This document shows positions 10,766 to 30,919 of a DNA stretch of 35,048 nt, piece after piece. The DNA is from an uncultured Chloroflexota bacterium (GTDB lineage Bacteria; Chloroflexota; UBA11872; VXNJ01): NCBI GenBank assembly GCA_964474495.1, contig CAYYTN010000001.1, positions 14,740 through 49,787 of the forward strand, in the 5' to 3' direction. The notes beneath the pieces are model-generated. The model was not told the origin of the DNA, made no database searches, and was given only the letters and a program-made list of their open reading frames with translations. A program made the position numbers and the translations under genes. Positions within the stretch are counted from its first letter, which is position 1, and every line of letters starts with the position of its first letter.

Positions 10766-10922
10766 CTCGCACTGATGGGAGCGTGGCGCCGACGCTGCGC
10801 CACTTGCACCAAACGGATGGCACGCGATTGATCACGATCCAGATTGATAGATCTCCCCGATCCCGCGTATGGGCGCGGACCGGGCGCCCCGTCCTGTTGC
10901 CCGGTCGAGGGATCGCGACCTA

Positions 10923-11921
10923 ATGATCGAGTTTTCGGTGGTAGTACCTCTTTACAACGAGGCCGGTAACGTTGCGCGGCTGGTTACCGAACTGGTGGAG
11001 TCGTTGTCCGGGCGGGACTTCGAGATAGTGCTGGTAGATGACGGTTCGGATGACGGCACCGTCGCTGAGCTGGCGAAGGTGGCCGGGGAGGAGCCTCGCG
11101 TTCGGGTCGTGTATCTAACTAGGAACTTCGGTCAAACGGCCGCCCTGGCGGCCGGTCTGGCCGACGCGACTGCCGAGACCATCGTCACGATGGATGGCGA
11201 TCTGCAGAATGATCCATCCGACATTCCGGGGCTTTTGGACAAATTGGACGAAGGCTTCGACGTGGTCAGTGGCTGGCGCCGGGAACGCACTGGCTCATTT
11301 GTGTCGAGGCGTCTGCCGTCACGGATCGCGAATTGGATGATCAGCCTCGTTGTGGGGGGAAGGGTGCACGACAACGGCTGCGGACTCAAGGCATACCGGC
11401 GCGAACTTTTGGAACAGCTCCAGCTCTACGGAGAAGGGCACCGCATTTTGATGGCCCAGGCGGTGGAACTCGGTGTGAGGATCGCGGAAGTGGAGGTGGC
11501 GGATCGGGCGCGAAGTTACGGGGCCTCGAAGTATGGAATCTCACGGACCTACAAGGTCTTGCTGGATCTGCTTGCGTTGAAGTTCTTGTCTTCCTACGCG
11601 TTCAAACCGATACGGGTTTTCGGCGGAATCGGATTCATTTTCCTGGCGGCATCGCTTCTCCTGGGAGCGGGCCTCATAGTCTGGCGACTGTTGGGCGAAG
11701 GATTCATCATCCAGACGCCGCTGTTGTTGGTGGCCGCGGTTCTTTTTATTGTGGGAGTCTTCCTCGTCTTGCAGGGATTGCTCGCGGAATTGACGGTTCG
11801 CCTGTACCACGAGGTCCACGGTGGGCCTATCTACCGAACGAGGGTTCCTGTCCTGAGGTCGGCGGAGGATCAATCCGGCGAGAACAAGCCGGATCACGAT
11901 CCTTCCGACGGCGAACGATGA
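10923..11921 (+). CDS. Polyprenyl-phosphate glycosyltransferase, GT2 (GtrB/ArnC/DPM1-like)
   Basis: Motifs FSVVVPLYNE, EIVLVDDGSDDGT, LTRNFGQTAALAAG, VTMDGDLQNDP, DVVSGWRRER and RIANWMI, followed by two C-terminal TM helices. This is the ArnC/GtrB layout. ATG 10923 is preceded by GAGGGA (10907..10912). The track start at 10869 only adds an Arg-rich extension. Confidence 0.9.
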   Translation: MIEFSVVVPLYNEAGNVARLVTELVESLSGRDFEIVLVDDGSDDGTVAELAKVAGEEPRVRVVYLTRNFGQTAALAAGLADATAETIVTMDGDLQNDPSDIPGLLDKLDEGFDVVSGWRRERTGSFVSRRLPSRIANWMISLVVGGRVHDNGCGLKAYRRELLEQLQLYGEGHRILMAQAVELGVRIAEVEVADRARSYGASKYGISRTYKVLLDLLALKFLSSYAFKPIRVFGGIGFIFLAASLLLGAGLIVWRLLGEGFIIQTPLLLVAAVLFIVGVFLVLQGLLAELTVRLYHEVHGGPIYRTRVPVLRSAEDQSGENKPDHDPSDGER

Positions 11922-14900
11922 TGAGGGCCAGGGCGGTGACGGCGGCGGTCATCGCCGAAACAACAACCGCGGCCGAGAACCATCCTTGGGGTTGAAAGTT
12001 TATTTCGACCAGTCCGTTGTCCGACGGCTCAAACAGGTAAGCGTTGGCGTAGTCGTCTACCTGGAAGTGCGGCAGTGGCCAGCCACCGGACGAAGCTACC
12101 CACTGCTCGTGAAATGACTCATTGAAGACCAGGACGCACGGCGAGTCGCAGTTCACATCGACGCTATAGCCAGTTGGGGATGCCCGGAGGACCGTGACGG
12201 CACCGGATTTAGGTGGGGACTGGCGAACCGAATCTGGGATGAGTTCGAGGAAGTAGTCCTCCTGGCCGAGTTGCGGGATCGTGATGGAGGAGGTCCCGGT
12301 GAGATGTAAGGTCGTGCCGAAAAGAGAGACCGAGCCTTCCTGAGGGTCCATGAAAGTGGCGCGACCGTCTACCGCAATGATCAGAGGATTGGGGCGGCCG
12401 CCGGGCCAGTCGAGATCGCCGAAGGGGCGGAAGGAAACTTGTAGCCGGTACTCCCCGGGTGGAGTCGCGGGACGCCACTCAAAGATCGCGCGAGAAAGGC
12501 CTGGATCACCCCGAACCGCGAAGGCCGCGTTCTGACCTCCGCGAAGGTCGGAAGGATGGGGGGAATAGAACGAGATCACGTTCTCGCCCGGATGTATCCG
12601 AAGTGCCGGCACGCGGATGGCGGTGGGCGTATCTGGTGGAACCTCGGTGACGCTCAGCAGCTCGGAATTCAGGTAGACAAAAAAGGAACGAGCCCGGGCA
12701 TAGGAGAATACGCTAAGGGAAAGCTCGGCCAGCACTGGGGTATTGGACTCGTTAGATGCGAGATAGTGTTCGCCATTGTTCAAGGTGAACCACCGCCAGG
12801 TGTGCCCGGGGGTTAGATCCTCGAACTGCCCCCAGGTTGTTGGGTCGCCGTAGCTGATGGATAGGCCGGGGGCCGCAGCCCGGACGGATCCTTCGAGATC
12901 GGCCGTATCGGCAAACACAACCGACTGCAAATCGGAACGACCGGAACTGATGCGGCCGTCTGACGCTTGCCCGGTCAGCAACGATTCGGCCGCCGCCGGC
13001 AGATCTTCGGAAGCCACGAAGACGGTGTTGGGATTCGCGTCGGGAGATGCAAGGAGCGCGACGCGGCGCGCATCAAGATTTGCCACGGCGGTGATTTCGG
13101 AAGCGATCGTGAAACGCGGCCTTGGTGTCTCGACCTCATAGATGTCCCATTTACCGAAGGTTGCGACCCGGATAACTCCGGGAGCATTTGCAAGAATCCG
13201 CTCGACGTTCTCGGGGGAGTCCGTTACGCGATAGCCGGAACCCTGGTAGAAGTCGTAGCGTACGTCGCGCTCATGTACCAGGTAGCGGACGCCGAGTCGG
13301 GATAGCAACGCGGGGGCAGCTTCGGATAGCTCGTCCAACAGATCGGCCTCAATGCGTTCAACCAGACGTTCGCTGGCGTTAGGCGCCCCCTGTGAGATCT
13401 TGGTGTTCTCGGTGGATCGTTTGAAGATCACGGGGTGTGTGGTCAGGGTCTGGAGGAACGATCCGAAGCCGGTATAGCCCCACTCACTGAGCCAGGGGGA
13501 ATCGCCGGGAATGGTCATGATTCGGAAATCGCCAGGCTGCCGGTTTATCCAGTCGGCGGCTTCATATACGTAGACGGGCGGTCCAGCGTGATTGGGGTTC
13601 AGGAACGTCCGCTCACCGGCAGTCGGGAAGGCAAGCCCGAAGGTGAGGGGGTAGGCGTAGAGGGGGCCGACGGCAAAGTACAGGGCGAAGGCGCAGAACA
13701 CCGCTCCCCGGGCGGCAGCCCGGTTTGACCAGATTCCGACAACACGGACGAGAGCGAATTCCGCGAATCGAATCAAGGTCGGAGCCGACAGGCCGATCAG
13801 GACCGCATAGCCGATGACGGTGAGAAAGGAGAACTTGAACCACGGACTCCTGATGATCCAGAAGAATGGGAGGTTGTCGACCGCCCAGGCATACGCCGGG
13901 CCAAGGGGGGAATTCAGGCCGGCGCCGGCGATGAGGCCGATCCCGGTCAACAGAACGAAATAGCCCTTGTATTTGCCGCGTCCCCGTATTGCCCCGAGGA
14001 GCACCAGCGCAAAGGTCGTCAGACCCAGAAGCACCAGCAACATGCTGCCGGCGAAGCGGGCTGCATAGGTGCGGTAGGGGTCGACAAGGCCCTGGTACCA
14101 CGTCCAGTCACTGACAAAGCGGATGTTGTTGCCGATCGATGTGTAGAGGCTCTGCCCTTCGAGAAACTGGCGACTGGTCCGCTGGAATTCGGGGAAGCTA
14201 TCGGAGGCTTGAGCGGCTTTAATGCCGGCAATTTCCGGGACGATCCAGAACGCGTGTAGAAGGGGGAGCACAATCGACAAGGAGAGCCCGGCCATCAGCA
14301 CTCTTCCCAACGCTGGCCATCGTCGCCGGGCGGCCGCAGACAGCGCCACGGTCAGGAACAGAAGCGGTACCGGAACAATCGCCAATATCATCTCGCTGAC
14401 GTTGTTGCCGATTGGCGCGGCGGCCAGGGACATGAGAGCAGAAATCAAGACTGCCCGGAGATAGCCGGTCCCGCTGGAGAAGACCCGCACCCAGAGCCCT
14501 ATCAAGAAGGGCATCACGGCCACGGCCGCGATCATCGGCTCCTTGTAGCCAAGCCAGTTGGAGATCAACCAGAGATTGAACATGTAGAACAACACGGCCG
14601 CCATCCGAACGAGGCGCCTTTGGTCGCCCTGGTACACACCCACCATCAGGTAGTACATGCTTAAGCCCGGGATTGTGAACCAGACGACGAACTGGGCCAT
14701 CTGGGCCCCAACGATCCCGACGCCGAGGCCCTGTAAGGCGGCGGCGATGAACAGCGTTGGGAACCGGCCCGAGTCGAGAATCTTCTGGGCTCCAGTTCCG
14801 AGTTGATCGTTCCAGACGTACCAGAACTGGGTGAATTCGTCCCAGTTGGGTGGGACCATGAGGTCCTCGGAGTTGAGCAATTGCCCTTCCCGGAACCAGA

Positions 14901-15009
14901 GAAGCGGCGCGAGTCCAAGTACCAGGATCAAGACGAAGTCGCCGATCGGCGCCCGACGGTTGATCCGCCCGAACCAGCCGGCCAGGGCGTGCGTCACGAA
15001 TGGATCCAA
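11827..15009 (-). CDS. Giant GT-C fold membrane glycosyltransferase, AftD/DUF3367-like (1060 aa)
   Basis: Motifs NSEDLMVP (first loop), FYMFN, FFWIIRSPWFKFSF, IRFVSDWTWYQGLVDPYRTYA, a large non-membrane region, FNESFHEQWVA...DDYANAY...FQPQGW and a terminal TM. The track start is TTG with no clear SD, so the start is uncertain by a few codons. Confidence 0.8.
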   Translation of the reverse strand: MDPFVTHALAGWFGRINRRAPIGDFVLILVLGLAPLLWFREGQLLNSEDLMVPPNWDEFTQFWYVWNDQLGTGAQKILDSGRFPTLFIAAALQGLGVGIVGAQMAQFVVWFTIPGLSMYYLMVGVYQGDQRRLVRMAAVLFYMFNLWLISNWLGYKEPMIAAVAVMPFLIGLWVRVFSSGTGYLRAVLISALMSLAAAPIGNNVSEMILAIVPVPLLFLTVALSAAARRRWPALGRVLMAGLSLSIVLPLLHAFWIVPEIAGIKAAQASDSFPEFQRTSRQFLEGQSLYTSIGNNIRFVSDWTWYQGLVDPYRTYAARFAGSMLLVLLGLTTFALVLLGAIRGRGKYKGYFVLLTGIGLIAGAGLNSPLGPAYAWAVDNLPFFWIIRSPWFKFSFLTVIGYAVLIGLSAPTLIRFAEFALVRVVGIWSNRAAARGAVFCAFALYFAVGPLYAYPLTFGLAFPTAGERTFLNPNHAGPPVYVYEAADWINRQPGDFRIMTIPGDSPWLSEWGYTGFGSFLQTLTTHPVIFKRSTENTKISQGAPNASERLVERIEADLLDELSEAAPALLSRLGVRYLVHERDVRYDFYQGSGYRVTDSPENVERILANAPGVIRVATFGKWDIYEVETPRPRFTIASEITAVANLDARRVALLASPDANPNTVFVASEDLPAAAESLLTGQASDGRISSGRSDLQSVVFADTADLEGSVRAAAPGLSISYGDPTTWGQFEDLTPGHTWRWFTLNNGEHYLASNESNTPVLAELSLSVFSYARARSFFVYLNSELLSVTEVPPDTPTAIRVPALRIHPGENVISFYSPHPSDLRGGQNAAFAVRGDPGLSRAIFEWRPATPPGEYRLQVSFRPFGDLDWPGGRPNPLIIAVDGRATFMDPQEGSVSLFGTTLHLTGTSSITIPQLGQEDYFLELIPDSVRQSPPKSGAVTVLRASPTGYSVDVNCDSPCVLVFNESFHEQWVASSGGWPLPHFQVDDYANAYLFEPSDNGLVEINFQPQGWFSAAVVVSAMTAAVTALALIIVRRRKDRDPACSRRIDPPPTSGQEPSFGR

Positions 15010-15051
15010 TCGGGTTGTCGGCTCGATCGCGGGGAGGCTGCGGCGGGCGCG

Positions 15052-18000
15052 CTAATGAGGGTCTCCCTCTGATCTGGAAATGCGATCTCGTATGGCCATT
15101 CCAGCGACCGCAAGAACCGCGAGGGCGAGGGCAGTGACCGAGACGATCGCACCGCCCACGAAGAGTCGTTGCGGGCCAAAGGACAGGCTGATCGCCTGCT
15201 CCCCGGCTGGGATGATGTACGCATTGGCGAAGCCGTTCACGCGATATTGGTCCAGCGGGGCCGAGGTTGAAGTGGCGACCCAACGGGGGTCGAACGATTC
15301 TCCGAAGATCATGATGGCCGGGTTGTCGGCCGAGATTTCAAGGTCGTATGAAGTGGGGCTCTCCTCGGCGGGAAGGGCGTGACCAGGGGCTGGGCCGGCC
15401 CCCGGGCCTCCGCCCGAAATGACGCGGATGGCGTAGTTCTCGGAGCCGGCCTGTTGCACGGTGATGGTGTGACCGCCGGGTTCGAGGGCCACGGTGGTGA
15501 TGAATGTAGGCTCGCCCAGCAGGTCCTGCCGCTCAAAATTCAGGGCCACATCGTCCAGGCTGGCGGTCACCGCGGCAGGAAACGCATCCAGACCATAAGG
15601 GCGTATCTCTAGTCGGTGGGCCCCGCCGCGTGGAGCGTCGAACGTGAGGTCGAAAGCAAGCCGGCCGGAGAGGAGGCTGCGGTCCAGGACGGCGAAGTTG
15701 CGATTGACGTTGCCGACCGCGGTAGGAGGGTGGGCGGTATAGAGCATCAGATAGCTTTCGCCGGGAGGGATCGTGACATCTTTGACCAGGACGTCGGTTT
15801 CGCGGTCGGCGGGCAGTCGTTGGATGAGCAGGGGGACGTTGGAAGGGGTCGGGCCGTCGTAGGGAAAAACATAGAAATCCCGGGCTTGCCCCAGCGATGT
15901 CACGGTCAGCATCAGATTGGTGCGGACCGGGCTGGCGGACTCGTTTACCACGATCAGCGCGCGCTTTCCATCTGGCTCGAGCCAGTGCCAGCCACTTCCA
16001 TCGTCGGCAGTCTCGACCACCGCAAGGTGTTCGCCGAACTGAAACTGGACGGGATCGTCGGCCGATGGATCGAGCGGCGGGCGGGCGACCACATCGGGAT
16101 TCTCCGTTGAGGCCAGGAAGACCACCCGCAGTCCGGGGTCGAGGAGTTTTAGTTGCACTCGATCGACGAGGCTTGCATAGATGGTCTCCGGCACCAGGAC
16201 CACTTCGCCAGTGGCAGAGTCGAGCGTGCCGGTGAGGAGATGAGATCCCGCGTCGAGCAATTGGGTGCCAAGTGGTATCCAGAATGGTGTCGCGGAGGAC
16301 GGGGTCGAACTTAGATCGAGGGGGCGACCGTCCACGGCGAGGTCACCCGAAGGAAAGCGGTTACGGTTCGGGGATCGCAACCAGACACGATACTCGGCGG
16401 TTTCACCAACGGTAAATGCCACCGGAATGCCGCTGCGCGCTACCGGATGGCGATACTCAGCCGGAATAAGGTCGAGGGCGAGCTCCTCGGGCCCGCTGGC
16501 GAAGAACAGGATCTCCCGGAGCAACGGTGACTCCATCGCTCGGGAGAGACTTTCGGGGGTCTGCTGTTCCGAGAACAGCAGCGCCGGAGCGGTAAGCAGA
16601 TCCATCCCGGCCATGGTCGGGATGGCCTCGACTCCGCCGGCGACGAGGGACAGCCCCGAAGCCAGATAGAACTTCGGCAGAGGGTTATCGACGGAGTACA
16701 CGTCCCAATCTCCGAAAGTGGCCTCCGGATGGATACCCAGCTGCTTCTCTAGCCGGAGACGCACCCAGTCGGCGGAGTCGACATCGCCGGAGTACAACCA
16801 ATATTTGATACCCGTTTCGTGGTTGAAATAGCGGACGCTCATCAGTTTCAGGATTTCGTCAGCCCGTCGGGTGGTTGCCCGGTAGATCGCTTCGTAGGCG
16901 ATGTCGTTCAACATCGCGTTGGTGGCTGAAACGAGGGAACCGGAGACCGTTTGAAACGGGTAGACAATCGGCGTGACACCAAGCTGCGTGAGTGCCGGAG
17001 AGCCTCCGACAAAACCGTTCTGGTCGGCCCAGATGGTCGTCTCGGGCAGCGCCGCGACTCGCCCGCCGTGAGCGTTCTCGTCGAGCCAGCGGGATGCCTC
17101 TGCAACATAGTCCGGGATTTGCATCCGATTGGGAGGCAGATGCTCACGGACCGCGGCGGGCGGGAACATCTGACCGGTGGTGACGGGGTAGGCATAGATG
17201 AGGTTGGTGGCGACGAGAGTGAAGGCAACAAAGGCCGAGGTGGGGCTGCCAAGTTGCCTGCCGATTCGCGACTGCGCCGAAGCCTGTCGCAGCCATCCGG
17301 TGATGTTCGCGGCGCCAAGCCCACCGAGAACCGCAAAACCGAGACTGGTGACCAGGGCGAACTTGAACCAGGGGCTGCGGATGATCCAGAACAGGGGCGC
17401 ATTGCGCACCAGCCAGAGATAGATCCGATCCATCGGCGGATGGGTGCCCATGCTTAATAGGAGGGCAAAGAGGGTGACGGTGCCGAAGAACAGGCGGAGC
17501 CGTCTCCCGCGCCCGGCGAGTCCAGCTAGAGCCAGAACCGGGGCCACCCAGGAGAGGATCGCCAGGGTCGCGGAATTTTCGTAGGTGTCGGCATAGGGGC
17601 GGTACGGCTCGTTCCAACCCTGGTACCAGGTCCAATCACCCTGAAAACGCAGCACTTTGGCGAAGGACGTGTTTGCGGACAAACCGCCTAGCCAGTTTGA
17701 TGCGAGCTCGCTGGAAGTCGTGAGTTCGCCGGTCGTGGTTGCCTGGATTTGCCCGACGAAGGGAATGATCCAGAATGCGTTGATCAAGATCGAAACGGTC
17801 ACCAGGATGCCTACCGTGCGGAATACCGGGACCAGGCGGGAACTCAGCCGGCCATCGGTTGAAAACAGCAGATACGCCAGCGCGAACGCGGCAATCGCGG
17901 CGACGAAGACCAGCACGAGTGGGGGGTTCACGCCCACCCCCGAGGACCACAGGGCAACCGGTGCCGTGTAGAGGGCCAGGCGGAGGGACGATATGCGCCC

Positions 18001-18537
18001 TTTGAAACCCAGATAGAGCAGCGTGAGCAGCAACGGCAGGGCGGTCTGAGCGGTGAGCACGCCGATGTTGAATCCGCGCCAGGCGTGTTCGATGAAGAGA
18101 TTGAACATGTAGAAGCTTGCCCCGACCACAGCGGCGGTCTGCCATTGACCACGGGACAGCCGGGAGGTGAACAGCGCTCGTACAAGCACGTACACGCCCA
18201 GGCCGGACAGGGTCATCCAGAGAATCATGATCAGGCGCTGGGTGACGGCCGGGCTGAATCCAACTGCCTGCAAACCGGCCTGCTGAGCGAACGTGAGGAT
18301 GGCGGTGTGAGCGACGTTATACGGGGTGCCGGTGTTGAGAACGGGGTTCCAGGAATGCAGCGTGAGGAAGAATTGCTGAGGCGTACGCGGCAGGGCCAGA
18401 TCCTCGGATATCAGGATGGTGTCCCAAGGAGCCCAGAGTGCAGGGATGAGCCCCAGGGCAACGATCAGGGCCGGAACCGCGTAGGTAGATCGATGGAAGG
18501 TCATGAGGACGCCGCCGAGTCGGGCGGAATCTCGCAT
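15052..18537 (-). CDS. Giant GT-C fold membrane glycosyltransferase, AftD/DUF3367-like (~1161 aa)
   Basis: Motifs ISEDLALP, FYMFN, LFWIIRSPWFKFAL, LRFQGDWTWYQGWNEPYRPYA, FGESFDPRWVA...NGFANAY and a terminal TM. The track start at 18627 would overlap the upstream gene by 83 nt. ATG 18537 (7 nt after that gene's stop) or ATG 18504 is more plausible. Confidence 0.8.
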   Translation of the reverse strand: MRDSARLGGVLMTFHRSTYAVPALIVALGLIPALWAPWDTILISEDLALPRTPQQFFLTLHSWNPVLNTGTPYNVAHTAILTFAQQAGLQAVGFSPAVTQRLIMILWMTLSGLGVYVLVRALFTSRLSRGQWQTAAVVGASFYMFNLFIEHAWRGFNIGVLTAQTALPLLLTLLYLGFKGRISSLRLALYTAPVALWSSGVGVNPPLVLVFVAAIAAFALAYLLFSTDGRLSSRLVPVFRTVGILVTVSILINAFWIIPFVGQIQATTTGELTTSSELASNWLGGLSANTSFAKVLRFQGDWTWYQGWNEPYRPYADTYENSATLAILSWVAPVLALAGLAGRGRRLRLFFGTVTLFALLLSMGTHPPMDRIYLWLVRNAPLFWIIRSPWFKFALVTSLGFAVLGGLGAANITGWLRQASAQSRIGRQLGSPTSAFVAFTLVATNLIYAYPVTTGQMFPPAAVREHLPPNRMQIPDYVAEASRWLDENAHGGRVAALPETTIWADQNGFVGGSPALTQLGVTPIVYPFQTVSGSLVSATNAMLNDIAYEAIYRATTRRADEILKLMSVRYFNHETGIKYWLYSGDVDSADWVRLRLEKQLGIHPEATFGDWDVYSVDNPLPKFYLASGLSLVAGGVEAIPTMAGMDLLTAPALLFSEQQTPESLSRAMESPLLREILFFASGPEELALDLIPAEYRHPVARSGIPVAFTVGETAEYRVWLRSPNRNRFPSGDLAVDGRPLDLSSTPSSATPFWIPLGTQLLDAGSHLLTGTLDSATGEVVLVPETIYASLVDRVQLKLLDPGLRVVFLASTENPDVVARPPLDPSADDPVQFQFGEHLAVVETADDGSGWHWLEPDGKRALIVVNESASPVRTNLMLTVTSLGQARDFYVFPYDGPTPSNVPLLIQRLPADRETDVLVKDVTIPPGESYLMLYTAHPPTAVGNVNRNFAVLDRSLLSGRLAFDLTFDAPRGGAHRLEIRPYGLDAFPAAVTASLDDVALNFERQDLLGEPTFITTVALEPGGHTITVQQAGSENYAIRVISGGGPGAGPAPGHALPAEESPTSYDLEISADNPAIMIFGESFDPRWVATSTSAPLDQYRVNGFANAYIIPAGEQAISLSFGPQRLFVGGAIVSVTALALAVLAVAGMAIRDRISRSEGDPH

Positions 18538-18544
18538 TTTCAGG

Positions 18545-19642
18545 CTACGCCTCGGAACGCAGTGAGGCGGCCATGCCGAGGAGCAGGGCCAGCCCGAGCG
18601 AGATCTCGGCGAGTGCCCCGGAAACATTGCCCGCGTCGTCCATCTTCAGCAGCGCAAAGCCGATGGACAGCCCGAGGAGGGTCAGAGTGGCGGCCAGGAG
18701 CGGTGGCCACAGCACCGCGGGGAGGAGCATCTTTCTGAGGGGGACCTTCCGCGTTCCCTGGTTGTGAACCCAGCGATATGCCAGCCAGATCATCAGGAGC
18801 GCGGTGTCCAGGAGCCATGCGTAGGCCAAGGCCGTATTCCAATAGGTGGCGATGAGGGTGGACTGCAAGCCCTCGCCGAACTGCTCGGCGAAGGTCGCGG
18901 CAGCGGCCGTCAAGATGAGGGCCATCATGACCGGCACGAGGGCGATGAATGGAAGCGGGGAAATGACGGTGGCTCGGATATGCCGCAGGGTCAATGCACC
19001 GAGTGCTATCCCGCCGGCGCTGGCGACGGCAATCGCCAGGACGTAGAGCGCCGATCGGATCGGGTCGACCCCGATGGTGTCGCGCATAAGCGACCAGGCG
19101 CTCACGGAGGCGATTGGCGAGACCAGCGCTCGGAGATCGGGAAGGGTATCGGCGCCGTTGATTGTCAGCTGGTTTGGCGGCAGGTCGTAGAGGTGTTCGC
19201 TGCCTAGGACAACAAGGCCGCCTGGAGAATAGGCGGCCACTTCCATCTCGTACTCAAGGTACGGCCCATCGTCGGCCGGGATTGGTGGCAACGGGATCGC
19301 GGTCACCACCTGGTGGTTTGGGCCGTTGGTACGCTGAACGGACTCTCGAAGGATCTCACGATCACCCCCCGACCGCCGAATCCGCAGGTTGACGTAGGCT
19401 AGCCGCCGAGAATCAGAAGGTCGCACGAGGGCTGCAAAACCGGATATATCCCCAATTTGCGTTTCGATACGCTGGCTCACGCTGCCACCAGGCTCCAGGT
19501 ACACCACTTCTTGATAGGCCCGCTCGATCTCCCAAAGTTGTACGTTGCGACGAAGGGTGAGTTGACTTACAACTGCGATTACGGCGAGAAGAGCTAAACC
19601 GGCCCAAGCTGCCAGGGTGAATACTCGACGGCGCCCGGTCAA
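18545..19642 (-). CDS. Polytopic membrane protein of unrecognised family (paralog B of three), embedded between two giant GT-C genes
   Basis: 365 aa. TM anchor FTLAAWAGLALLAVIAVV. The domain carries VYLEPGGSVSQRI, DISGFAALV, VNLRIRRSGG and PIPADDGPYLEYEMEV, followed by ~5-6 hydrophobic helices. The TTG start overlaps the upstream TGA (TTGA). Confidence 0.7.
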   Translation of the reverse strand: MTGRRRVFTLAAWAGLALLAVIAVVSQLTLRRNVQLWEIERAYQEVVYLEPGGSVSQRIETQIGDISGFAALVRPSDSRRLAYVNLRIRRSGGDREILRESVQRTNGPNHQVVTAIPLPPIPADDGPYLEYEMEVAAYSPGGLVVLGSEHLYDLPPNQLTINGADTLPDLRALVSPIASVSAWSLMRDTIGVDPIRSALYVLAIAVASAGGIALGALTLRHIRATVISPLPFIALVPVMMALILTAAAATFAEQFGEGLQSTLIATYWNTALAYAWLLDTALLMIWLAYRWVHNQGTRKVPLRKMLLPAVLWPPLLAATLTLLGLSIGFALLKMDDAGNVSGALAEISLGLALLLGMAASLRSEA

Positions 19643-22600
19643 GACGCGGTGTCTTCTGGGGGACGGGTCCTACGGGCCACCCGGTCGCGTGCAAGCCTTA
19701 TCAGTAATAGCGATACCAGGGCGGCGATGCTAGCGGCGGAGATATTTCTGGTGGCGTCGGCGAGAGGCTGTAGGTTGAATTTGAACTCGATTTCGTACTC
19801 TCCGACTTGGTCGACAAAGAAGCCATTGGCAAACCCATTCACTTTCAAATGAGGTTCAACTGGGACCCCATTGATAGTGGCTTCCCAACGGTCGTCGAAC
19901 AGTTCGTTGAGCATGATCATGGTCGGACGCTCAGTTCGCACGGACGCGCGGATAAGGCTGCTGGAAATGGATTCATACTGGATGACCAGATCCTGGTGGT
20001 CGGTGATTTCCGATCGGATGGGCACCAGTGTCACGGGAATGGATGCACCCAGTTTCTGGTCGATGATCAGTGTGTGTGGCCCGGCCGAGAGATTCACGGT
20101 GGTCGTCGCGATCCGAAACTTATCGTCCCCGGTGAGGACAGGGAGCAAGTCCTCCCCGTCGATAGTCAGAGCGTTCAGCAGATCGTGATGGTCAGGGCTG
20201 GCAGACGACTGGTACGTCAGATGGACCCCAAGGCGATAGTTGCCGCCCTCTGCAACATGGAAGGTTCGCTCGCGTTTGATCGTCCCGATCACGACCGGCA
20301 TTTCGTATTCGAAACTGGCAAAGCTCCCGTCCGACAGAAGCGCGTCTCCCTCAGGGGAGTAGAGATTCACAAAGGTTGTCCCAGGTTCAATGTCGATTGA
20401 GAGGACTAATACTTCCCGAGGTATCGAAGGCTGAAGGAGGAAGATCGAATGAAAGGCACCTCCCACGTTAATCCAAAGGGACCTGGGAATGGTCCCAATC
20501 GGGGTCGGCCGAAGAACCATGGCGATTGTTTGTGCAGATCCTGATTGGTTGGAAATCTCTAGGTGGGGTGAGTATTTCTGCACCGCTCGAAGGCGCCGTG
20601 TGCTTAATCCCTCGACTCCTGTCTCGAGCTCGTCCCAGTTATCTTTGAGCGCGATCGTTACCCGCATCTCGACCGGGAGATCGACAATATCTTGGGGAGT
20701 GATGCGGCCGAAAAGGTAGATGTAACTTGGGAATTGTTGTCCAGGGGTGAGACCGAGCTCAGAGCTGCCGGGAAACGCAACACTAGACTCGCTGTCCATT
20801 AGCATCTTATTGTCCAGAGCGATCCGATCGGCTGCGCGAACAAGGACGAGCCGAAGCCCGTCAGGAGCCGGCGAAGGGAATCCTAATTTGAGTGTGCTGC
20901 TGCCCTGAACCCCTTCAAAACTACCCCAGTAGACCCAGGAATCGGGAAGCTCGAATACATCGGCGAACGGGTCGAGGGTTAGCGGTTTGCCGTCGATGGA
21001 CGGAGCCCTAGGGCCTTTGGGGGTGGGAAACACATCTTGCCGAAGGAGTTCACGGTTGACAAAGTCGAACCCGGAAAGGCTAGAAGAGTTCGCCTCCGTG
21101 ACTAGCTCCCAAAGCTCGTACGTTCCGTCGACCGATATCTCCATGTCCACGGAGTTGGACCCCGGCGGAATAGTCAGGCTGCTCTCATTGCTCTTGAACG
21201 CAAGAAACTCGTTGAAACCATTCCCGAGGCGCAGGATGCTCGCCGGAGGTATATCTTTAGCGAACTGTGCGGTAGTGGAATCTTCCCCAGAAGGGTCGAT
21301 CATGACGATGGCAGGGTCAGGATCAGCCAGGCTGTTCGTAAGCGGACTAAGAGACTGGAGCCCGGTCAGCGTGAGAACTGTAAGCGGCGAACCCCAGACG
21401 AGGTCTCGAACATCGGGGACAGCGAAAAAAATCAGCGGACCAAAACGGGCCACCTCATCGATCCCTTGCCACTCCAGGACCCTATCAATGTACTCGTCTA
21501 AATTGTCCGCAAACTCCGGTCGGACGACATCGCGCTGGTGAAGGAAATAGCCGATGCCAGACCTCCCGGCGACCCGGGCAATGGGAACAGTCCGAGTGCC
21601 CAGCGTCTGGGCATACAGGTAGGCTTGCATCTCAGACGGTTCGACCAGATTGATGAAGGGCTCGGTAGTTAGCTCGCCGACCGGTGGGATGTAGCCGGTA
21701 TAGCCCCAATCGGTCGTAAGCCGTAGCGCAGGAGGGAACGAGAGCACGCGGTAGTCGCCCGGGTGTTCATTCATCCAGGCCGCTGCCTCGACAAGATAAT
21801 CTGGCATCTGAACTTGAAGGGTGCTCAGGGGAGAATCTAGGGGACGCTGAATGAAGAAGCGCCCCCGGACGATGGGCATTGTGTACAGGAGATAGAGCAC
21901 CGCCAGGAGCAAAGGGAAGCTCGCTGACAGGGTCCGGGCGGTCCGCCCATAGCGGAGACCGAAGCGCGAGCTGGCCAGGAACTGGCCTATGGATGCCGTG
22001 GTCGCGGCGACGAAGAGACCGGCCAATGGCGCAAAGCCAAGGATTGTCAGGGAAGTGGCTTTGTACCAGGGGCTCCGCAGGACCCAGAAAAGAGGCACAT
22101 TTTTCCACAGCAAAGCGAAGATCGGACCGAACGGACCGTTGATGCCACTGCCCAAGACTAGCCCGAGGAATGCCACGAAGCCGAAATACAGACATTTGCG
22201 ATCTCTCTGGACGGCGAGACCGCCAAGGGCAACCAGTGGAAGCAGGAAACTCCCGACGATAAGTAGCGGATTCTGAAAGTACCCCGCCGCGTAGGGAACA
22301 TACGGGACGCCTTTGAAGCCGCCGTACCAGACCCAGGCGCCCTGCATCCGCCAAACATTGAGCGGATTGGTATAGCTGGAGAGGTGAGTGAGTTGGGCAA
22401 GTCCAACGTCCTTCGTGCGACCGATAAAATTTTGTCCCGGTCCGCCGGTAATGAGTCCGACGGACTGCGGTACGAGCCAGTAGGCGTTGACTGCCACGAT
22501 AAGAACCAGGGCGATTGACGCCAGCATGAGCATTCGACGTGCTTGCAGGGCCCGGCCGGTCGCGAATCGATGGATCATATACATGATCATGTAGAGGGGA

Positions 22601-23229
22601 ACGGGGATCATCGCGATCAGGGCCATGGGCGGGTTGGCTCCGACACCAGATCCGACCACGGTAATCAAAGCTATAAGGGCCGCACTAGTCAGCAATCGAC
22701 CATTCCGCGTGAATGAAATGGTCACTGCCAGGGAAAGCGGTAGTGCGACTAATGCGCTGAGGTTGGCAATGTTGACGCCCTGCCAGAGTGGTTCCTGATA
22801 GAAATTGAACATGTAAACGAGGCTGGCGGCTACCCACGCTATTCGGGAAGTGGTCAGGTACTGCATTAGGACGTACATGGAGAGCCCCACAGCCGACAAC
22901 CAAAGTGCGAACTGGAGCCGCTGGGCAAGCTCGATGGATGCACCGACGGCACGGAACAGGGCGGGCCAGAAGAGGAAGAACACCGCAGGCAGACGATCAT
23001 CGGGGCTTGAACCGAAACCGACGCGGGATTGCCAGGTGCTAAAAAATTCTGCCCATTGATCGAGAGTCATAGGGAGGATGAAATCTTCGGCCTTGGCCAC
23101 GTAGCCTGACTTTACCCAGAACAGCGGCGCGAGCCCGGCTAGCAGAACGACAGCCAGGGCCGGGGACGGCAGAAAACGCTGTCCGAGGGAGATCCAGCGG
23201 CGTTGGGGCACTACCGATGGCCTAGTCAT
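19639..23229 (-). CDS. Giant GT-C fold membrane glycosyltransferase, AftD/DUF3367-like (1196 aa)
   Basis: Motifs KAEDFILP, VYMFN, LFWVLRSPWYKATSL, WRMQGAWVWYGGFKGVPYVPYA, LNELFDDRWEA...NGFANGF and a terminal TM. The ATG overlaps the upstream carbamoyltransferase stop by 8 nt. G+C is visibly lower than in its paralogs. Confidence 0.8.
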   Translation of the reverse strand: MTRPSVVPQRRWISLGQRFLPSPALAVVLLAGLAPLFWVKSGYVAKAEDFILPMTLDQWAEFFSTWQSRVGFGSSPDDRLPAVFFLFWPALFRAVGASIELAQRLQFALWLSAVGLSMYVLMQYLTTSRIAWVAASLVYMFNFYQEPLWQGVNIANLSALVALPLSLAVTISFTRNGRLLTSAALIALITVVGSGVGANPPMALIAMIPVPLYMIMYMIHRFATGRALQARRMLMLASIALVLIVAVNAYWLVPQSVGLITGGPGQNFIGRTKDVGLAQLTHLSSYTNPLNVWRMQGAWVWYGGFKGVPYVPYAAGYFQNPLLIVGSFLLPLVALGGLAVQRDRKCLYFGFVAFLGLVLGSGINGPFGPIFALLWKNVPLFWVLRSPWYKATSLTILGFAPLAGLFVAATTASIGQFLASSRFGLRYGRTARTLSASFPLLLAVLYLLYTMPIVRGRFFIQRPLDSPLSTLQVQMPDYLVEAAAWMNEHPGDYRVLSFPPALRLTTDWGYTGYIPPVGELTTEPFINLVEPSEMQAYLYAQTLGTRTVPIARVAGRSGIGYFLHQRDVVRPEFADNLDEYIDRVLEWQGIDEVARFGPLIFFAVPDVRDLVWGSPLTVLTLTGLQSLSPLTNSLADPDPAIVMIDPSGEDSTTAQFAKDIPPASILRLGNGFNEFLAFKSNESSLTIPPGSNSVDMEISVDGTYELWELVTEANSSSLSGFDFVNRELLRQDVFPTPKGPRAPSIDGKPLTLDPFADVFELPDSWVYWGSFEGVQGSSTLKLGFPSPAPDGLRLVLVRAADRIALDNKMLMDSESSVAFPGSSELGLTPGQQFPSYIYLFGRITPQDIVDLPVEMRVTIALKDNWDELETGVEGLSTRRLRAVQKYSPHLEISNQSGSAQTIAMVLRPTPIGTIPRSLWINVGGAFHSIFLLQPSIPREVLVLSIDIEPGTTFVNLYSPEGDALLSDGSFASFEYEMPVVIGTIKRERTFHVAEGGNYRLGVHLTYQSSASPDHHDLLNALTIDGEDLLPVLTGDDKFRIATTTVNLSAGPHTLIIDQKLGASIPVTLVPIRSEITDHQDLVIQYESISSSLIRASVRTERPTMIMLNELFDDRWEATINGVPVEPHLKVNGFANGFFVDQVGEYEIEFKFNLQPLADATRNISAASIAALVSLLLIRLARDRVARRTRPPEDTAS

Positions 23230-25138
23230 CTCGGGTCTTGGAGATCATGTAGGGCCCGATGGATAGATTCCGTAGACCCGAATCCACGAATGTCTTCACG
23301 GCGTCGGCCGCGTTGCATACAACCGGCTCACCATGGAGGTTGAAACTGGTGTTCAACACCGCCCCGATGCCGGTCATGCCCTCGAACGCTTTGATCAGCC
23401 CGTGGTATTCGGGATTGTCTGATTGCCGCAGGATCTGGGGGCGCATCGTCTTGTCGAACGGATGGATCGCGGCCGCCAGGCTGTCGTGTGCCTCGGGCAC
23501 TGTTTCGAAGGCCGTCATCATGTGGGGCGAGGGCACCTGCCCAGGATTCTTGATGTAGCGGTCCTGGCTCTCGTCCAGGACGGTCCCGGCGAACGGCATC
23601 CAGAAGTCACGTTGCTTGATCTGATGGTTGATGATGGGCACCACTTCGGGGTCTGAAGGGTTGGCGAGGATGGAGCGGTTGCCCAGCGCGCGGGCACCAA
23701 ATTCCATCCTGCCTTGGCATCGGGCGACAATCTGGCCGTCCTGCAGCATTTTGGCCGTTTCCAGATCCACGTCTTCCGGTTGGCGCACCCCGCAGGTTTC
23801 AGCCAACCCGAAATCGCGGATGGCACCGTCGATTTCGGCGGGGACCAGGTCGGGGCCAAGGTAGAGGCTGTCCAGCGGCGCCGGCGTCTTTCCGGTGAGG
23901 AGTTGATAGCCGTTGTAGGCGGCGCCGATCGCGGTTGATTCGTCTCCGGCGCTTGGGCACACGCCGAAATGCTGGAGTCCAGGTAGGTCCTTCAGAAGCA
24001 TGTTGGCCTTCACGTTCATGAAGACGCCACCGGCGGCAAGCAGGTTCACCGCTCCCGTCTCCCGCAGGGCATTTCGGGCAAACTTTTCCATCAAGTCTTC
24101 GCAGTGTTGTTGGGCTGCCCCGGCAACCCAATCAAACCGTTGGCGACGTAGGGCGGCCTCCAGGCGATGTCCGGCAGCCCGGGTCGAGGTCGGCCCTCGA
24201 AACTGCAGCCCGTCTACATGAAGCAGTTCCTGAAAGATCGGCAGAACTCGTTTCACGCCCTCTTCGTCCGCGTAGGGAGCCAGCCCCATGACTTTGTATT
24301 CGTGCTCCCCAGCCTTCATTCCCAGAGCGCGGGTGACGAGGGTGTAGAAGATGCCAAGGGAATAGAGGTTGGCGGTTTTGGCGACCCGGGTCATGGTGCC
24401 GTTCTCGGCCACGGAAACTGTGGCGCAACAATCATCGCCGGCGCCGTCCAACGTGAGTACGAGCGTCCGCCCACTCGGAGTCGGTCCAAAGAAAAGGGCC
24501 GATGTTGCGTGGCAGAGATGATGGTCGGCAGACTGGATCTTCGATTCCGGCAGGCCCAGCTCTTCGGCCAGGTCACGGTATTGAATCCGCCGCAAACGCG
24601 GCCAAACCGTCGGAGCGTAGACGCGCTCGTAAACGTTCTTTTCCAGGACATCCAGCACCCGCGAGGCCACCCGGTTCGAATTTCCCATGCCGTATATGAA
24701 CTGTGCGCTGCGATGCACCGCACGACGCAGTGAGGTGACCCGGCGGGCGCCGGTCTCGGCGGCCTGAGTGGCCGGATCGACGTGATCGATGGCCACGCCA
24801 AAGTGGGGGTATGGGTTCTTGTAGGTCAGAACAACAAGGTCTAGCCGTTCCGACGGAATCCCGGCGAAATCGAGGACATATTGGATCGCCTGCCGCGGAT
24901 ATCCGGTGTCGTTCTTGAATCGGGTGAACCGCTCTTCACTGGCGACGGCGATTATCTCCCCGTCGCGCAACAGTGCAGCTGTGCAGTTGTGCGCCTCGCT
25001 GATTCCGAGAATGTAGGTCGGGCTTACGGCGTGATCCGCCGAGTTTCCGTCTCTGGCCAAACTGGTCCCTAAGCTCTTTGTGCAGGCCACGTTTGCCGGT
25101 GCACCCCCGGTGGAAGATGCCTTCCGGTATGGCAACAA
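23222..25138 (-). CDS. NodU/CmcH-family carbamoyltransferase (second copy)
   Basis: Motifs YILGISEAHNCTAALLRDGEIIAVASEERFTRFK, DHHLCHATSALFF, GRMEFGARALGNRSILANP, WMPFAGT and NTSFNLHGEPVV. The start is uncertain: the track start at 25138 is TTG, and an in-frame TTG at 25060 lies closer to the conserved N-terminus. Confidence 0.9.
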   Translation of the reverse strand: MLPYRKASSTGGAPANVACTKSLGTSLARDGNSADHAVSPTYILGISEAHNCTAALLRDGEIIAVASEERFTRFKNDTGYPRQAIQYVLDFAGIPSERLDLVVLTYKNPYPHFGVAIDHVDPATQAAETGARRVTSLRRAVHRSAQFIYGMGNSNRVASRVLDVLEKNVYERVYAPTVWPRLRRIQYRDLAEELGLPESKIQSADHHLCHATSALFFGPTPSGRTLVLTLDGAGDDCCATVSVAENGTMTRVAKTANLYSLGIFYTLVTRALGMKAGEHEYKVMGLAPYADEEGVKRVLPIFQELLHVDGLQFRGPTSTRAAGHRLEAALRRQRFDWVAGAAQQHCEDLMEKFARNALRETGAVNLLAAGGVFMNVKANMLLKDLPGLQHFGVCPSAGDESTAIGAAYNGYQLLTGKTPAPLDSLYLGPDLVPAEIDGAIRDFGLAETCGVRQPEDVDLETAKMLQDGQIVARCQGRMEFGARALGNRSILANPSDPEVVPIINHQIKQRDFWMPFAGTVLDESQDRYIKNPGQVPSPHMMTAFETVPEAHDSLAAAIHPFDKTMRPQILRQSDNPEYHGLIKAFEGMTGIGAVLNTSFNLHGEPVVCNAADAVKTFVDSGLRNLSIGPYMISKTRDD

Positions 25139-25225
25139 GTTTAGCGGCCCGAAGGAGGTCAGTCAGATCAAAAGCAATCACCTGCCCTGCCTGTTTCTTC
25201 CCGGTATTCGATCGCCAAATTCGGC

Positions 25226-25231
25226 TAGGCT
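25226..25231 (+). promoter_or_regulatory. Candidate -10 box TAGGCT placed 6 nt upstream of the ATG at 25238 (leaderless geometry)
   Basis: The plus strand reads CGGC-TAGGCT-TTCCGA-ATG. The flank (CGGCTAG), the spacing and the lack of an SD match the 2072..2077 site. Confidence 0.35.
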
Positions 25232-25237
25232 TTCCGA

Positions 25238-26296
25238 ATGACCCCTAATGATCCCCCGTTGGCGCAGAGAGATCCGGATCTTGCCCCTGCTGCTCCGGTT
25301 TGCCCGGTATGCGGCGATCCCCATCGGCATAGAACTGGGCTGGAGCCGAGTTCTCCGTATCTGGACGGGGCCAGCTATCACATCGCCCGGTGCGCGGGCT
25401 GCGGGCTGCTACAAACCCAACCCTGGCCGACTCCAGAGTTATTGCGGCAGGTCTACGATTCTGGGAACTACTACTCGACCGTTGAGGCCTCGGCGACGGG
25501 AACGCCGAACCAGCCGCTCATCGAACGGGCGCGCAGCGCCGTCCGGTCCCTGGTGGTGCGTCACCACTTTGCCGCCGGTGGCGCTGGCCTGCAGGGCCGC
25601 CTGGCTTCGCTGGTCGCCCGGCGCCGATTTGGCTGGGGGCCGCCGGGATTGTCGCCGGGGAAGCTGCTGGACGTTGGCTGCGGAGACGGCGCCTTCCTGC
25701 TGGATGCGCGCGAGGCCGAATGGCAGGTGACGGGAATCGAAACCTCGCAGGTCGCGGTCGAGAATGCCGGACGGCTCGGGTTGAATGTTCTGGCCGGCTC
25801 GCTCGAGGACCATCCCTTTGGGCCGGCCGAGTTCGATGTTGTGCGGCTATGGAGCGTTCTCGAGCACGTGCCTGACGCCGGATTGGCGTTGGGCGAGATT
25901 GCGAAGCTCCTGCGACCTGGCGGCTGGGCGATTCTGCAAGTGCCTAACGCTGGAGGCTTTACAGCACGTCTGACCGGATCCCGCTGGCCGGGCTGGGACG
26001 TCCCGGCCCATCTGGTTCATTTCACCCGGGCCACGTTCGAGCGGGCTGTCCGGGCGGGCGGGATGTTGCCGATGGAGATTCACAGCTGCTCGGTGGGAAC
26101 CATGACCGGGCGCCACCCGTGGCTTGCATCCACCCCGGGTCGAGTGGCGGTTTTCGCAATGGACCAGCTATTCGATTTGCTGGGGGGTGGGGATACGCTG
26201 ATGATGTTTGCGCGTAAGCCGCTGGATCCGCGCTCCGGCGAGGGCTCTGCGGCAAGAACCGCCTACCAGCCCGCCAGTTGCGTGAAGTCGCAGTAG
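25238..26296 (+). CDS. Class I SAM-dependent methyltransferase with an N-terminal Cys4 zinc-ribbon
   Basis: 352 aa, with CPVCG...CAGCG, LLDVGCGDGAFL (motif I), VVRLWSVLEHVPD and LLRPGGWAILQVP. The 3' end overlaps the convergent GNAT gene by 34 nt. Confidence 0.85.
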   Translation: MTPNDPPLAQRDPDLAPAAPVCPVCGDPHRHRTGLEPSSPYLDGASYHIARCAGCGLLQTQPWPTPELLRQVYDSGNYYSTVEASATGTPNQPLIERARSAVRSLVVRHHFAAGGAGLQGRLASLVARRRFGWGPPGLSPGKLLDVGCGDGAFLLDAREAEWQVTGIETSQVAVENAGRLGLNVLAGSLEDHPFGPAEFDVVRLWSVLEHVPDAGLALGEIAKLLRPGGWAILQVPNAGGFTARLTGSRWPGWDVPAHLVHFTRATFERAVRAGGMLPMEIHSCSVGTMTGRHPWLASTPGRVAVFAMDQLFDLLGGGDTLMMFARKPLDPRSGEGSAARTAYQPASCVKSQ

Positions 26297-27423
26297 TCAA
26301 ACGGCGATAGCCAGGCCGAAGCGGTCTTCAGATTCAGGCCCTCGTCGCTGAACTTGACCGTGCCTGCTGCCACCGCTTCGGGGATATCGCTTACGCCGAA
26401 CAGGACCGACGGCAGTCCACCAGCAACGACGTTCAATTCGGAGTCTTCCGGACGGGCGTCGGCAAACGTGATCTCTCCGCCGGTGAACTCCAGGGTCACT
26501 CGCTCGTTTCGGGCGGAAATTGCCAACCGTGCCGGGCCAAGGCGGAGTTCGCGACCGCGAGCTCGCAAGAACGGGGAGAGTTGTCGGCAAAGCCTCTCCA
26601 ACGACACGATGTAGATCAGGTTCTCGCCGCTGCGCTTTTCCCAGGGGAGCCCGGGTGTCGCCCTGACCAGATGACCGTGCGGCGAGCCATGGAGTTGGAA
26701 CGAGTCCAGGTCCAGTTGGGCGGCGACCGCATCCAGATACGTTGTCGGATTGTCCCCGGTTGCGTAGAGCAGCGACGATATGGTCCAGAGGTCGTCCACG
26801 TACCGGACCGCGGCGGCGGCGACCGGCGTATCTTGATCCCGGACGAGGTGCCAGGCGGTGCCGTTCGATACATCGGTGTTGCGATCTTCCACCCCGGCGG
26901 TCGTAGCGGCATAGGCGCGCCGGAGATCGGAGATGATGCCGCGCTCCGCAGGCAGGGCTCCTTGCACGGCCAGCTCTGGGCGTGCGCGACCAACCCGGCC
27001 GATTGCCGCCATGCGTCCCTGCACGACCTCGAATCCGCGGCGCCGATACATCTCGTACGCCGGCCCACGGGTTGGGTGGGCCACCAGCCATATTGCCGCG
27101 AGTTCATGCCGGTTCGCGAACTCCACCGTCCGGGCGTAGAGCTGAGCCCCGATGCCTTGTCCGCGATGGGTGTCCTTGACCAGGACCTGGCCAACGTTGC
27201 CGAACCTGAGTCTCGCCTCACCGTGGAGCAGAGTGCGGACGGCGATAAGACAATGACCAACGATCTCCCCATCGGTCTCGGCGACGACGATCGAATCCTC
27301 CAGCAAGCCGGTGTCGTTGAATTTGTCGGCGTAGCGGGCCTCGCTGAGCCAGCCGAGTGAATCGATCATCGGCCATAGTTGGGCATCGTCGTCGGGCCGC
27401 CAGTAACGGTACGAGATCGTCAT
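26263..27423 (-). CDS. GNAT-family acetyltransferase with an extended C-terminal region (Eis-like length and layout)
   Basis: 386 aa. The acetyl-CoA motif is VLVKDTHRGQGIGAQLYARTVEFA within the first ~150 aa. A further ~230 aa resemble the three-domain Eis-type architecture, but that call rests on length only. Confidence 0.75.
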   Translation of the reverse strand: MTISYRYWRPDDDAQLWPMIDSLGWLSEARYADKFNDTGLLEDSIVVAETDGEIVGHCLIAVRTLLHGEARLRFGNVGQVLVKDTHRGQGIGAQLYARTVEFANRHELAAIWLVAHPTRGPAYEMYRRRGFEVVQGRMAAIGRVGRARPELAVQGALPAERGIISDLRRAYAATTAGVEDRNTDVSNGTAWHLVRDQDTPVAAAAVRYVDDLWTISSLLYATGDNPTTYLDAVAAQLDLDSFQLHGSPHGHLVRATPGLPWEKRSGENLIYIVSLERLCRQLSPFLRARGRELRLGPARLAISARNERVTLEFTGGEITFADARPEDSELNVVAGGLPSVLFGVSDIPEAVAAGTVKFSDEGLNLKTASAWLSPFDYCDFTQLAGW

Positions 27424-27461
27424 TTCACCCTGCCTGATCGGAGGCGGCCGCGCTCAGGCCG

Positions 27462-30850: not shown

Positions 30851-30919
30851 TCGACGCTGGTCCCCGGTGGCGGGGCATCCCGAGCCGGACGATCGCTCTC
30901 GGGGCTATAACGGACGCGG

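Follow-up and report, generated by a model that had tools for sequence, protein, structure and literature searches.

Three paralogous membrane proteins with a predicted CBM-like beta-sandwich as candidate partners of GT-C-type glycosyltransferases in an uncultured Chloroflexota bacterium

Introduction

What is the role of three small membrane proteins of no annotated family that are encoded among large membrane glycosyltransferases? This question is raised by a 35,048-nucleotide stretch of DNA from an uncultured Chloroflexota bacterium (GTDB lineage Bacteria; Chloroflexota; UBA11872; VXNJ01), which corresponds to positions 14,740 to 49,787 of the forward strand of contig CAYYTN010000001.1 (NCBI GenBank assembly GCA_964474495.1), has a G+C content of about 61% and is called the window throughout. 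The three proteins, named A, B and C here, had been proposed in a preliminary description of the sequence to form a dedicated accessory family for glycosyltransferases of the GT-C type. GT-C enzymes make mycobacterial arabinan, teichoic-acid decorations, O-mannosylated proteins and many envelope glycans, and the way in which they recognize polymeric acceptors is poorly understood.

Here, we report that A, B and C are anciently diverged paralogs built on a common module, a membrane anchor followed by a beta-sandwich domain, which is fused to GT-C enzymes in other proteins. On balance we think it probable, if not strongly so, that A, B and C are split, membrane-anchored modules resembling carbohydrate-binding modules (CBMs) and that they act as separately encoded partners of GT-C-type membrane glycosyltransferases.

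Results

The genes stand where they had been placed by the preliminary description, and the four motifs quoted for each protein are present in the translations. B (18545..19642, minus strand) encodes a 365-aa membrane protein from a TTG start whose position is shared by the homologs P0002-4, and A (728..2065, minus strand) encodes a paralog of 445 aa. For C (30053..30850, plus strand), ATG 30053 is a likelier start than GTG 30035, which would give 271 aa; the resulting 265 aa agree with P0005 and with the other homologs. The gene divergent from C, g510, would be 548 aa long from GTG 30082, but its homologs point to TTG 29968 as the likelier start, with a length of 510 aa. The divergent orientation first described for this pair is retained with both starts revised, and these revised starts leave an 84-nt spacer instead of an overlap, with the same spacer found in relatives. 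The other gene junctions are exactly as first reported: the TGA stop of A and the GTG start of g635, its downstream neighbour, overlap by 4 nt (GTGA), the TTG start of B overlaps the TGA stop of the upstream gene g1196 by 4 nt (TTGA), and a 7-nt gap separates the stop of B from ATG 18537 of g1161.

Direct comparisons already relate the three proteins to each other, since BLASTP aligned A with B (E 2e-6, 26% identity over 175 aa) and A with C (E 7e-7, 26% over 137 aa), the match between B and C being marginal (E 0.019). To avoid circularity, a separate profile was then built for each subfamily from independent homologs. Searched against the 397 six-frame open reading frames (ORFs) of the window, each of these single-subfamily hidden Markov models (HMMs) gave the other two paralogs as its second and third matches, and the alignments of one subfamily profile with another by HHalign, a check that had been suggested beforehand, reached probabilities of 92.6-95.4% (E 2e-8 to 5e-7), above chance. 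A joint profile of the domain detected exactly three copies among the window ORFs, those in A, B and C, and none within the giant GT-Cs of the window or in any other of its ORFs. A, B and C are paralogous, and their divergence is old.

Their common architecture was also as initially perceived, with hydropathy and a structural model of B in agreement. Hydropathy profiles displayed one N-terminal transmembrane (TM) helix, a polar stretch of ~150 aa and then 2 (C) to about 5 (A and B) further helices, so that C has 3 TM helices in total, B has 6 and A has about 6. In A, the first TM helix (TM1) spans residues 16-34 and the domain residues ~38-193, followed by about 4-5 helices; C consists of TM1, the domain and two helices. 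The N-termini of the three proteins are rich in lysine and arginine and the domain is net acidic, so that, by the positive-inside rule, the N-terminus would be cytoplasmic and the domain extracytoplasmic. Sequence conservation is strongest in the domain, where Q57, R87 and P120 (B numbering) are nearly invariant. Readings of A, B and C as Wzy-like proteins or as anti-sigma factors or regulators were rejected on architecture.

The AlphaFold2 model of B, computed from a 40-sequence alignment, was of high quality (pLDDT 90.1, pTM 0.83) and comprised a TM helix (residues 2-28), an 11-stranded beta-sandwich (residues 32-180) and five helices (residues 182-363). By HMM envelope, the sandwich domain covers residues ~30-186, corresponding to 19085..19555 on the minus strand. 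A Foldseek search of the PDB with this model, a kind of search that had also been called for, returned solely jelly-roll or CBM folds, all of them weak matches with TM-scores no higher than 0.5. The best E value, 1.9e-3, was obtained with a CE2 esterase (2waa, N-terminal domain), and the other matches were a CBM4 (1gui, TM-score 0.47), a porphyran-binding CBM (8xmz, TM-score 0.49), as well as CBM16 and viral jelly rolls. In the model of a fusion protein described below (P0057), this domain matched CBM6, CBM36 and BcsB, the BcsB matches (9fmt_A and 6yg8, E 0.011-0.04) being local and having TM-scores of at most 0.13. Sequence searches were negative: Pfam and NCBIfam gave nothing for A, B or C at E<=10 except a spurious 18-residue PetM match in a TM helix of B, a domain profile found no match among PDB sequences, and neither a Pfam BcsB match nor sequence or strong structural homology to BcsB was detected. 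The domain is thus predicted to be a jelly-roll beta-sandwich that is CBM-like in fold, with weak similarity, and it does not belong by sequence to any described CBM family. The opinion that no known domain could be assigned to these proteins hence remains correct for curated families, none of which covers A, B or C, and no longer applies to the fold, which is not an orphan since it weakly resembles CBMs and BcsB.

How widespread is this module, and with which enzymes does it associate? Word-indexed homolog searches were sparse (4 proteins from B alone and 3 from P0057), and scans of genome collections gave no match with B alone and only two Chloroflexota metagenome-assembled genomes (MAGs) with an alignment of the C family. 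An exhaustive HMMER scan of the domain profile against 1.84 billion (1.84e9) representatives yielded 169 clusters at E<=1e-3, 41 of them at E<=1e-10 and 7 at E<=1e-30. The close relatives are from marine Chloroflexota MAGs, and A-, B- and C-like subtypes recur as separate lineages among the family members. The named members that were sampled are all called 'hypothetical protein', save one YfhO protein of Paenibacillus. A census of 165 retrieved proteins matching the domain profile showed that nearly half (77) are stand-alone proteins with a TM helix, the domain and 1-6 helices, as A, B and C are. A TM helix and the domain are followed by at least 7 helices in 16 others and by none in 12, the domain comes after at least 5 helices in another 12, no TM helix is found in 18, and the last 30 have other architectures.

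Among the family members, the module forms the N-terminus of polytopic proteins that include DUF2142/PMT, PMT_2, DUF6541 and DUF6044 proteins, and in other members it is the C-terminal part of a YfhO or PMT_2 protein that contains the domain. Counted by Pfam, its partners in cis are YfhO (six proteins), DUF2142 (four), PMT (four), PMT_2 (three), DUF6541 (two) and DUF6044 (one), and one LtaS-like sulfatase carries the domain as well. YfhO, PMT, PMT_2 and DUF2142 are GT-C families; DUF6541 and DUF6044 are polytopic families whose GT-C nature is not confirmed. In the six YfhO proteins, the domain occupies residues ~590-790, before the final TM helix, with library-wide E values of 3e-5 to 3e-4. 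Across this superfamily, the number of helices that follow the domain ranges from 0 to 6, and these helices are absent from many fusions, where the enzyme's own helices are found instead. The fused module can be TM1 and the sandwich alone, and TM1 plus beta-sandwich is the conserved unit.

The fusion that bears most directly on the window concerns A. Its partner gene g635 is located at 1..731 on the minus strand, where the window includes its 5' part (243 codons, from a GTG start), and it is complete on contig L008 (JGI Ga0115653_1006250), where it encodes a polytopic membrane protein of 635 aa with no Pfam match. In the 1006-aa protein P0057, an A-like module at the N-terminus is followed by a region (residues 416-1000) that aligns to g635 with 32% identity (E 2e-63), and P0054, P0048, P0063 and P0035 are fusions of the same kind that likewise align to g635. 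The P0057 locus also holds orthologs of the genes for a methyltransferase-GT2 protein and an epimerase, so that it is the fused version of the A/g635 locus. The AlphaFold2 model of P0057 was of moderate confidence (pLDDT 70.6, pTM 0.52) and its top Foldseek matches were all GT-C enzymes (E 3.5e-5 to 3e-2, probability 1.0), namely yeast and human STT3 (best match 8agc_A, E 3.5e-5), PglB, AglB, Pmt4 and DPY19. On this model, g635 probably has a GT-C fold. The unfused arrangement recurs too: the gene of the A-like protein P0033 has a g635 ortholog (35% identity) directly downstream, which it overlaps by 4 nt. An HHalign match between g635 and the AftD-like enzymes (94.9%) aligned non-equivalent regions (46-223 with 388-608) and was not used as evidence. 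We also observed that the fused methyltransferase-GT2 protein (523 aa; 2542..4113, plus strand) is kept beside the A/g635 pair, being present by the split locus of the window and by the fused P0057 locus (L010, 13068..14627).

B is wedged between two giant genes. Directly upstream, g1196 (19639..23229, minus strand) encodes a 1196-aa AftD-like protein that matches Pfam GT-C_AftD just below the curated cutoff (E 4.9e-6, 25.2 vs 26 bits). Directly downstream, g1161 (15052..18537, minus strand; 1161 aa from ATG 18537) has no Pfam match and is paralogous to g1196 (E 5e-73) and to a third giant, g1060 (E 1e-70). The latter gene (11827..15009, minus strand; 1060 aa) matches GT-C_AftD with E 4.2e-12 and is itself paralogous to g1196 (E 2e-59). 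The three giants have one layout in common, in which ~11 N-terminal TM helices are followed by ~550-700 aa of soluble region and then by one TM helix at the C-terminus. Judged by these sequence relationships, the genes that flank B are GT-C genes. Their association is conserved, since B-like proteins at 60%, 26% (P0024) and 24% (P0031) identity stay after or between AftD-like genes of ~1150 aa, with an upstream giant on L013 that is 38% identical to g1196.

Two further observations concern this region. The three paralogous AftD-like giants stand in tandem (11827..23229, minus strand) in a Chloroflexota genome, AftD being known elsewhere from mycobacteria and their actinobacterial relatives, where it serves the arabinan pathway. 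In a relative (JGI 3300072015), the segment corresponding to 11827..28439 has the same gene order and an epimerase (325 aa) and a GNAT protein (386 aa) of equal length, and its B-like protein (P0024) is merely 26% identical to B, compared to 78% identity for its C-like protein (P0006). Provided that P0024 and P0006 share one contig, these sequences suggest that the segment with B and the giant GT-Cs may be hypervariable, in the manner of serotype loci.

C has a different type of neighbourhood. It is divergent from g510 (28436..29968, minus strand), which encodes a polytopic membrane protein of 510 aa, and it is followed, beyond a radical-SAM gene, by g447 (32735..34078, minus strand), which encodes a polytopic membrane protein of 447 aa with ~11 TM helices. 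C-type genes are convergent with a g447 ortholog in every relative examined, and a g510 ortholog adjoins the C-type gene in four loci and is 3.6 kb away in L015. The most constant neighbour of C-type genes is therefore g447 and not g510. Neither protein had a Pfam, NCBIfam or PDB match, BLASTP was also negative for kinship with GT-C enzymes, and HHalign comparisons with the profiles of g635, the AftD-like proteins and g920 (a polytopic protein described below) stayed below 3% probability, so that these searches did not bear out the earlier view of the neighbour of C (then 548 aa) as GT-C-like. Consequently, the claim that each of the three genes is adjacent to a GT-C gene holds for B, through the Pfam match and the paralogy of its neighbours, is supported for A by the fold of the fused ortholog, and is still conjectural for C.

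Within g510, an invariant 'FGVDTWRH...ADYY' segment immediately follows TM1 and is reminiscent of the acidic first-loop motif of GT-C enzymes; the protein also has a soluble C-terminal domain of ~130 aa. As for g447, either a small GT-C or a Wzx/Wzy-like protein would be conceivable. The radical-SAM gene that lies between C and g447 in the window (interval 30850..32735) is found on the far side of g447 in L015 (8738..12224) and is absent from this position in L004 and L006, which is a local rearrangement inside an otherwise conserved block. The small module proteins diverge much faster than the enzymes that they adjoin: in L015, identity to the window counterpart is ~20% for the C-like protein, 46% for the g447 ortholog and 54% for the g510 ortholog.

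The three proteins are encoded in what Pfam shows to be a large glycan-assembly cluster. Besides the methyltransferase-GT2 fusion, it includes two epimerases/dehydratases, two carbamoyltransferases (Carbam_trans_N/C; 5400..7067, plus strand, and 23222..25138, minus strand), three more methyltransferases, which brings the methyltransferase domains to four, a GNAT protein, a B12-binding radical SAM enzyme (30920..32560), two further GT2s and several large polytopic proteins. Carbamoyltransferases, methyltransferases, the GNAT protein and the B12-radical SAM enzyme together imply a heavily decorated glycan, which would be carbamoylated, methylated and acetylated. One of the GT2s (10869..11921, plus strand; Pfam Glycos_transf_2, E 2e-35) has two C-terminal TM helices (253 and 283), an architecture of polyprenyl-phosphate sugar synthases that makes it a likely source of lipid-linked donors for the GT-C enzymes. 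Another protein, g920 (7072..9834, plus strand), is a 920-aa polytopic protein with ~10 N-terminal TM helices and a C-terminal TM helix that has no Pfam family; its NCBIfam match to the trehalose-lipid delivery protein MmpA is weak (E 1.3e-6, far below the cutoff), as is its HHalign match to the giant GT-Cs (37%), and it may be a fourth GT-C-like enzyme.

Discussion

How could such a module contribute to glycan assembly? We propose that its conserved core, a signal-anchor helix and an extracytoplasmic jelly-roll sandwich followed by a variable bundle of 2-6 helices, would be a mobile module of enzymes that use lipid-linked sugars (GT-C-type), either fused in cis at their N-terminus or inserted in their C-terminal extracytoplasmic part. 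In the Chloroflexota cluster, the module would instead be provided by separate genes that are translationally coupled to, or located beside, the gene of the cognate enzyme, A working with g635, B with the giant AftD-like GT-Cs and C with g447 and/or g510. The helices would dock on the transmembrane bundle of the enzyme, and the sandwich, on the outer face, would hold or orient the growing acceptor glycan, for acceptor or product handling. Each protein might then be an in-trans equivalent of the CBMs that are built into AftD and EmbC, or of BcsB for cellulose synthase. That the sandwich of A, B and C may bind glycans is what we infer from its modelled fold. Seen in this way, an accessory family for GT-C enzymes remains a fitting description in view of the fusions to GT-C families, of P0057 and of a synteny that persists at roughly 15-26% identity, provided that the family is not taken as dedicated to GT-C enzymes.

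Several points weigh against this interpretation. The domain resembles CBMs only weakly (E 1.9e-3 at best, no TM-score above 0.5), and jelly rolls serve non-sugar roles too. The nearly invariant Q57, R87 and P120 could be structural residues instead of ligand-binding ones. Weaker matches of the profile adjoin methyltransferase, WsaF/GT4, GDSL and sulfatase domains, which means that the sandwich is not exclusive to GT-C enzymes and, as methyltransferases, WsaF/GT4 and GDSL proteins are presumably cytoplasmic, not strictly extracytoplasmic either. The model of P0057, being of moderate confidence, gives nothing reliable on the interface between module and enzyme. Finally, the GT-C nature of the neighbours of C is unproven, and no fusion was found of the B type with AftD-like enzymes or of the C type with g447 or g510.

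Parallels exist in known systems. AftD carries three CBMs and, in its membrane part, a TM12 plus a separate TM13-16 domain (bioRxiv 10.1101/2019.12.22.885152), and the C-terminal domain of EmbC is described as a lectin-like CBM (PMC3044687). As would be the case for A, B and C, these are extracytoplasmic beta-sandwiches on a glycosyltransferase using lipid-linked donors, where they are thought to hold the polymeric acceptor, and the enzymes that flank B are AftD-like by Pfam. In contrast, the module of A, B and C is made as a polypeptide apart, complete with signal-anchor and helix bundle, its sequence is not similar to those of the CBMs of AftD and EmbC, and the giants of the window lack the A/B/C domain. 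BcsB is, like our proteins, a membrane-anchored product of its own gene, which lies beside that of the synthase that it partners, and its jelly-roll domains (carbohydrate-binding domains, CBDs) are on the outer face, as we propose for the sandwich of A, B and C. It differs in that it partners a processive GT-2 synthase, BcsA, instead of a GT-C, in that it is much larger, with two CBDs plus flavodoxin-like repeats and a C-terminal anchor, and in that the match is weak and lacks sequence homology. Closer at the sequence level are the YfhO proteins (PF09586), six of which have significant profile similarity to the A/B/C domain; there, however, the domain sits inside the enzyme or in its C-terminal part, and the Pfam model of YfhO does not detect A, B or C. 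What is new here is an unannotated family and its split variant, the principle of CBMs attached to GT-C enzymes being already known.

Could A, B and C act on the finished polymer instead? They might be surface proteins that bind or tether completed polysaccharide, as cell-wall anchors, scaffolds or S-layer attachment proteins, without being transferase subunits. The CBM-like fold would suit this function, and so would the 12 members made of a TM helix and the domain alone, the 18 without a TM helix and the association of the domain with non-GT-C enzymes. Yet a tethering protein would not be expected to be fused to at least five polytopic families, which include no fewer than three GT-C families, and to A's own neighbour, nor to overlap enzyme genes by 4 nt at both A and B, nor to retain, subtype by subtype, its own partner gene at roughly 15-26% identity. 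We consider this explanation unlikely.

Alternatively, the three proteins might be stabilizing or chaperone-like subunits, comparable to PIG-X for PIG-M or to the non-catalytic subunits of oligosaccharyltransferase (OST), in which the TM part is decisive and the sandwich a mere spacer. For B, the helices might even supply in trans the TM13-16 bundle of AftD that is lacking in the giants, which have ~11 N-terminal TM helices and one C-terminal one and to which B would add 6. A tryptophan in one of the helices that follow the domain, W268 in B, also fits this idea, as it is invariant in A, B and C and its column is mostly tryptophan in the 40-sequence alignment. Nevertheless, what is conserved is TM1 and the sandwich, with the strongest conservation in the latter, and the helices beyond them number anywhere from 0 to 6 and are missing from many fusions, so that this explanation strikes us as distinctly unlikely.

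Last, the suggestions of the preliminary description that A, B and C would flip polyprenyl-phosphate sugars in place of a missing GtrA, or control chain length as Wzz-type regulators of the polysaccharide co-polymerase (PCP) class do, are highly improbable, because, even if the proteins are membrane-embedded beside transferases and no GtrA- or Wzx-type gene was recognized among the ORFs scanned against Pfam and NCBIfam, neither database gave a GtrA or Wzz match for A, B or C, their architecture (3-6 TM helices and a sandwich) is neither that of GtrA (4 TM helices, ~120 aa) nor that of Wzz (2 TM helices around a helical periplasmic domain) and has an unconserved helix count (3 in C, 6 in B, about 6 in A) with helices that are replaced by those of the enzyme in fusions, down to TM1 and the sandwich alone, which argues against a transporter, their outer domain is a beta-sandwich and not the helical coiled-coil of PCPs, which argues against a Wzz-like regulator, and g447 and g510 are equally good or better flippase candidates.

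Returning to A, B and C as split partners of GT-C-type enzymes, a comparison with eukaryotes extends the idea. Eukaryotic GT-Cs work with small membrane-anchored subunits that have lumenal domains, such as OST48/Wbp1 and other OST subunits around STT3, or PIG-X with PIG-M. The likeness is conceptual, a GT-C catalytic subunit with small anchored subunits, and A's partner has a predicted STT3/PglB-like fold; no homology was detected, however, and the A/B/C-type subunit differs in that it also exists as a fused N-terminal module. To our knowledge, bacterial GT-Cs are generally regarded as single-subunit enzymes. A bolder and more tentative possibility, which we would not bet on at present, is that the GT-Cs of this lineage are obligate two-subunit enzymes, on which a fast-evolving CBM-like subunit docks and sets the acceptor specificity. 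If this were true, swapping or divergence of the small subunit would diversify the envelope glycan with the catalyst unchanged, and these enzymes would be a bacterial counterpart of the multi-subunit OST of eukaryotes, with a specificity module that is split or fused in YfhO, PMT-like, DUF2142 and AftD-like enzymes.

More generally, the recurrence of a module made of an anchor and a beta-sandwich, which is fused to or split from at least five families of polytopic enzymes, speaks for a shared device for acceptor handling. The domain profile gives an annotation handle on about 170 representative clusters that are now labelled 'hypothetical', and the split and fused pairs predict protein-protein partners directly and in a testable manner. 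For the organism itself, the locus is the sign of an extensive and unexplored pathway for envelope polysaccharide among uncultured Chloroflexota of marine origin.

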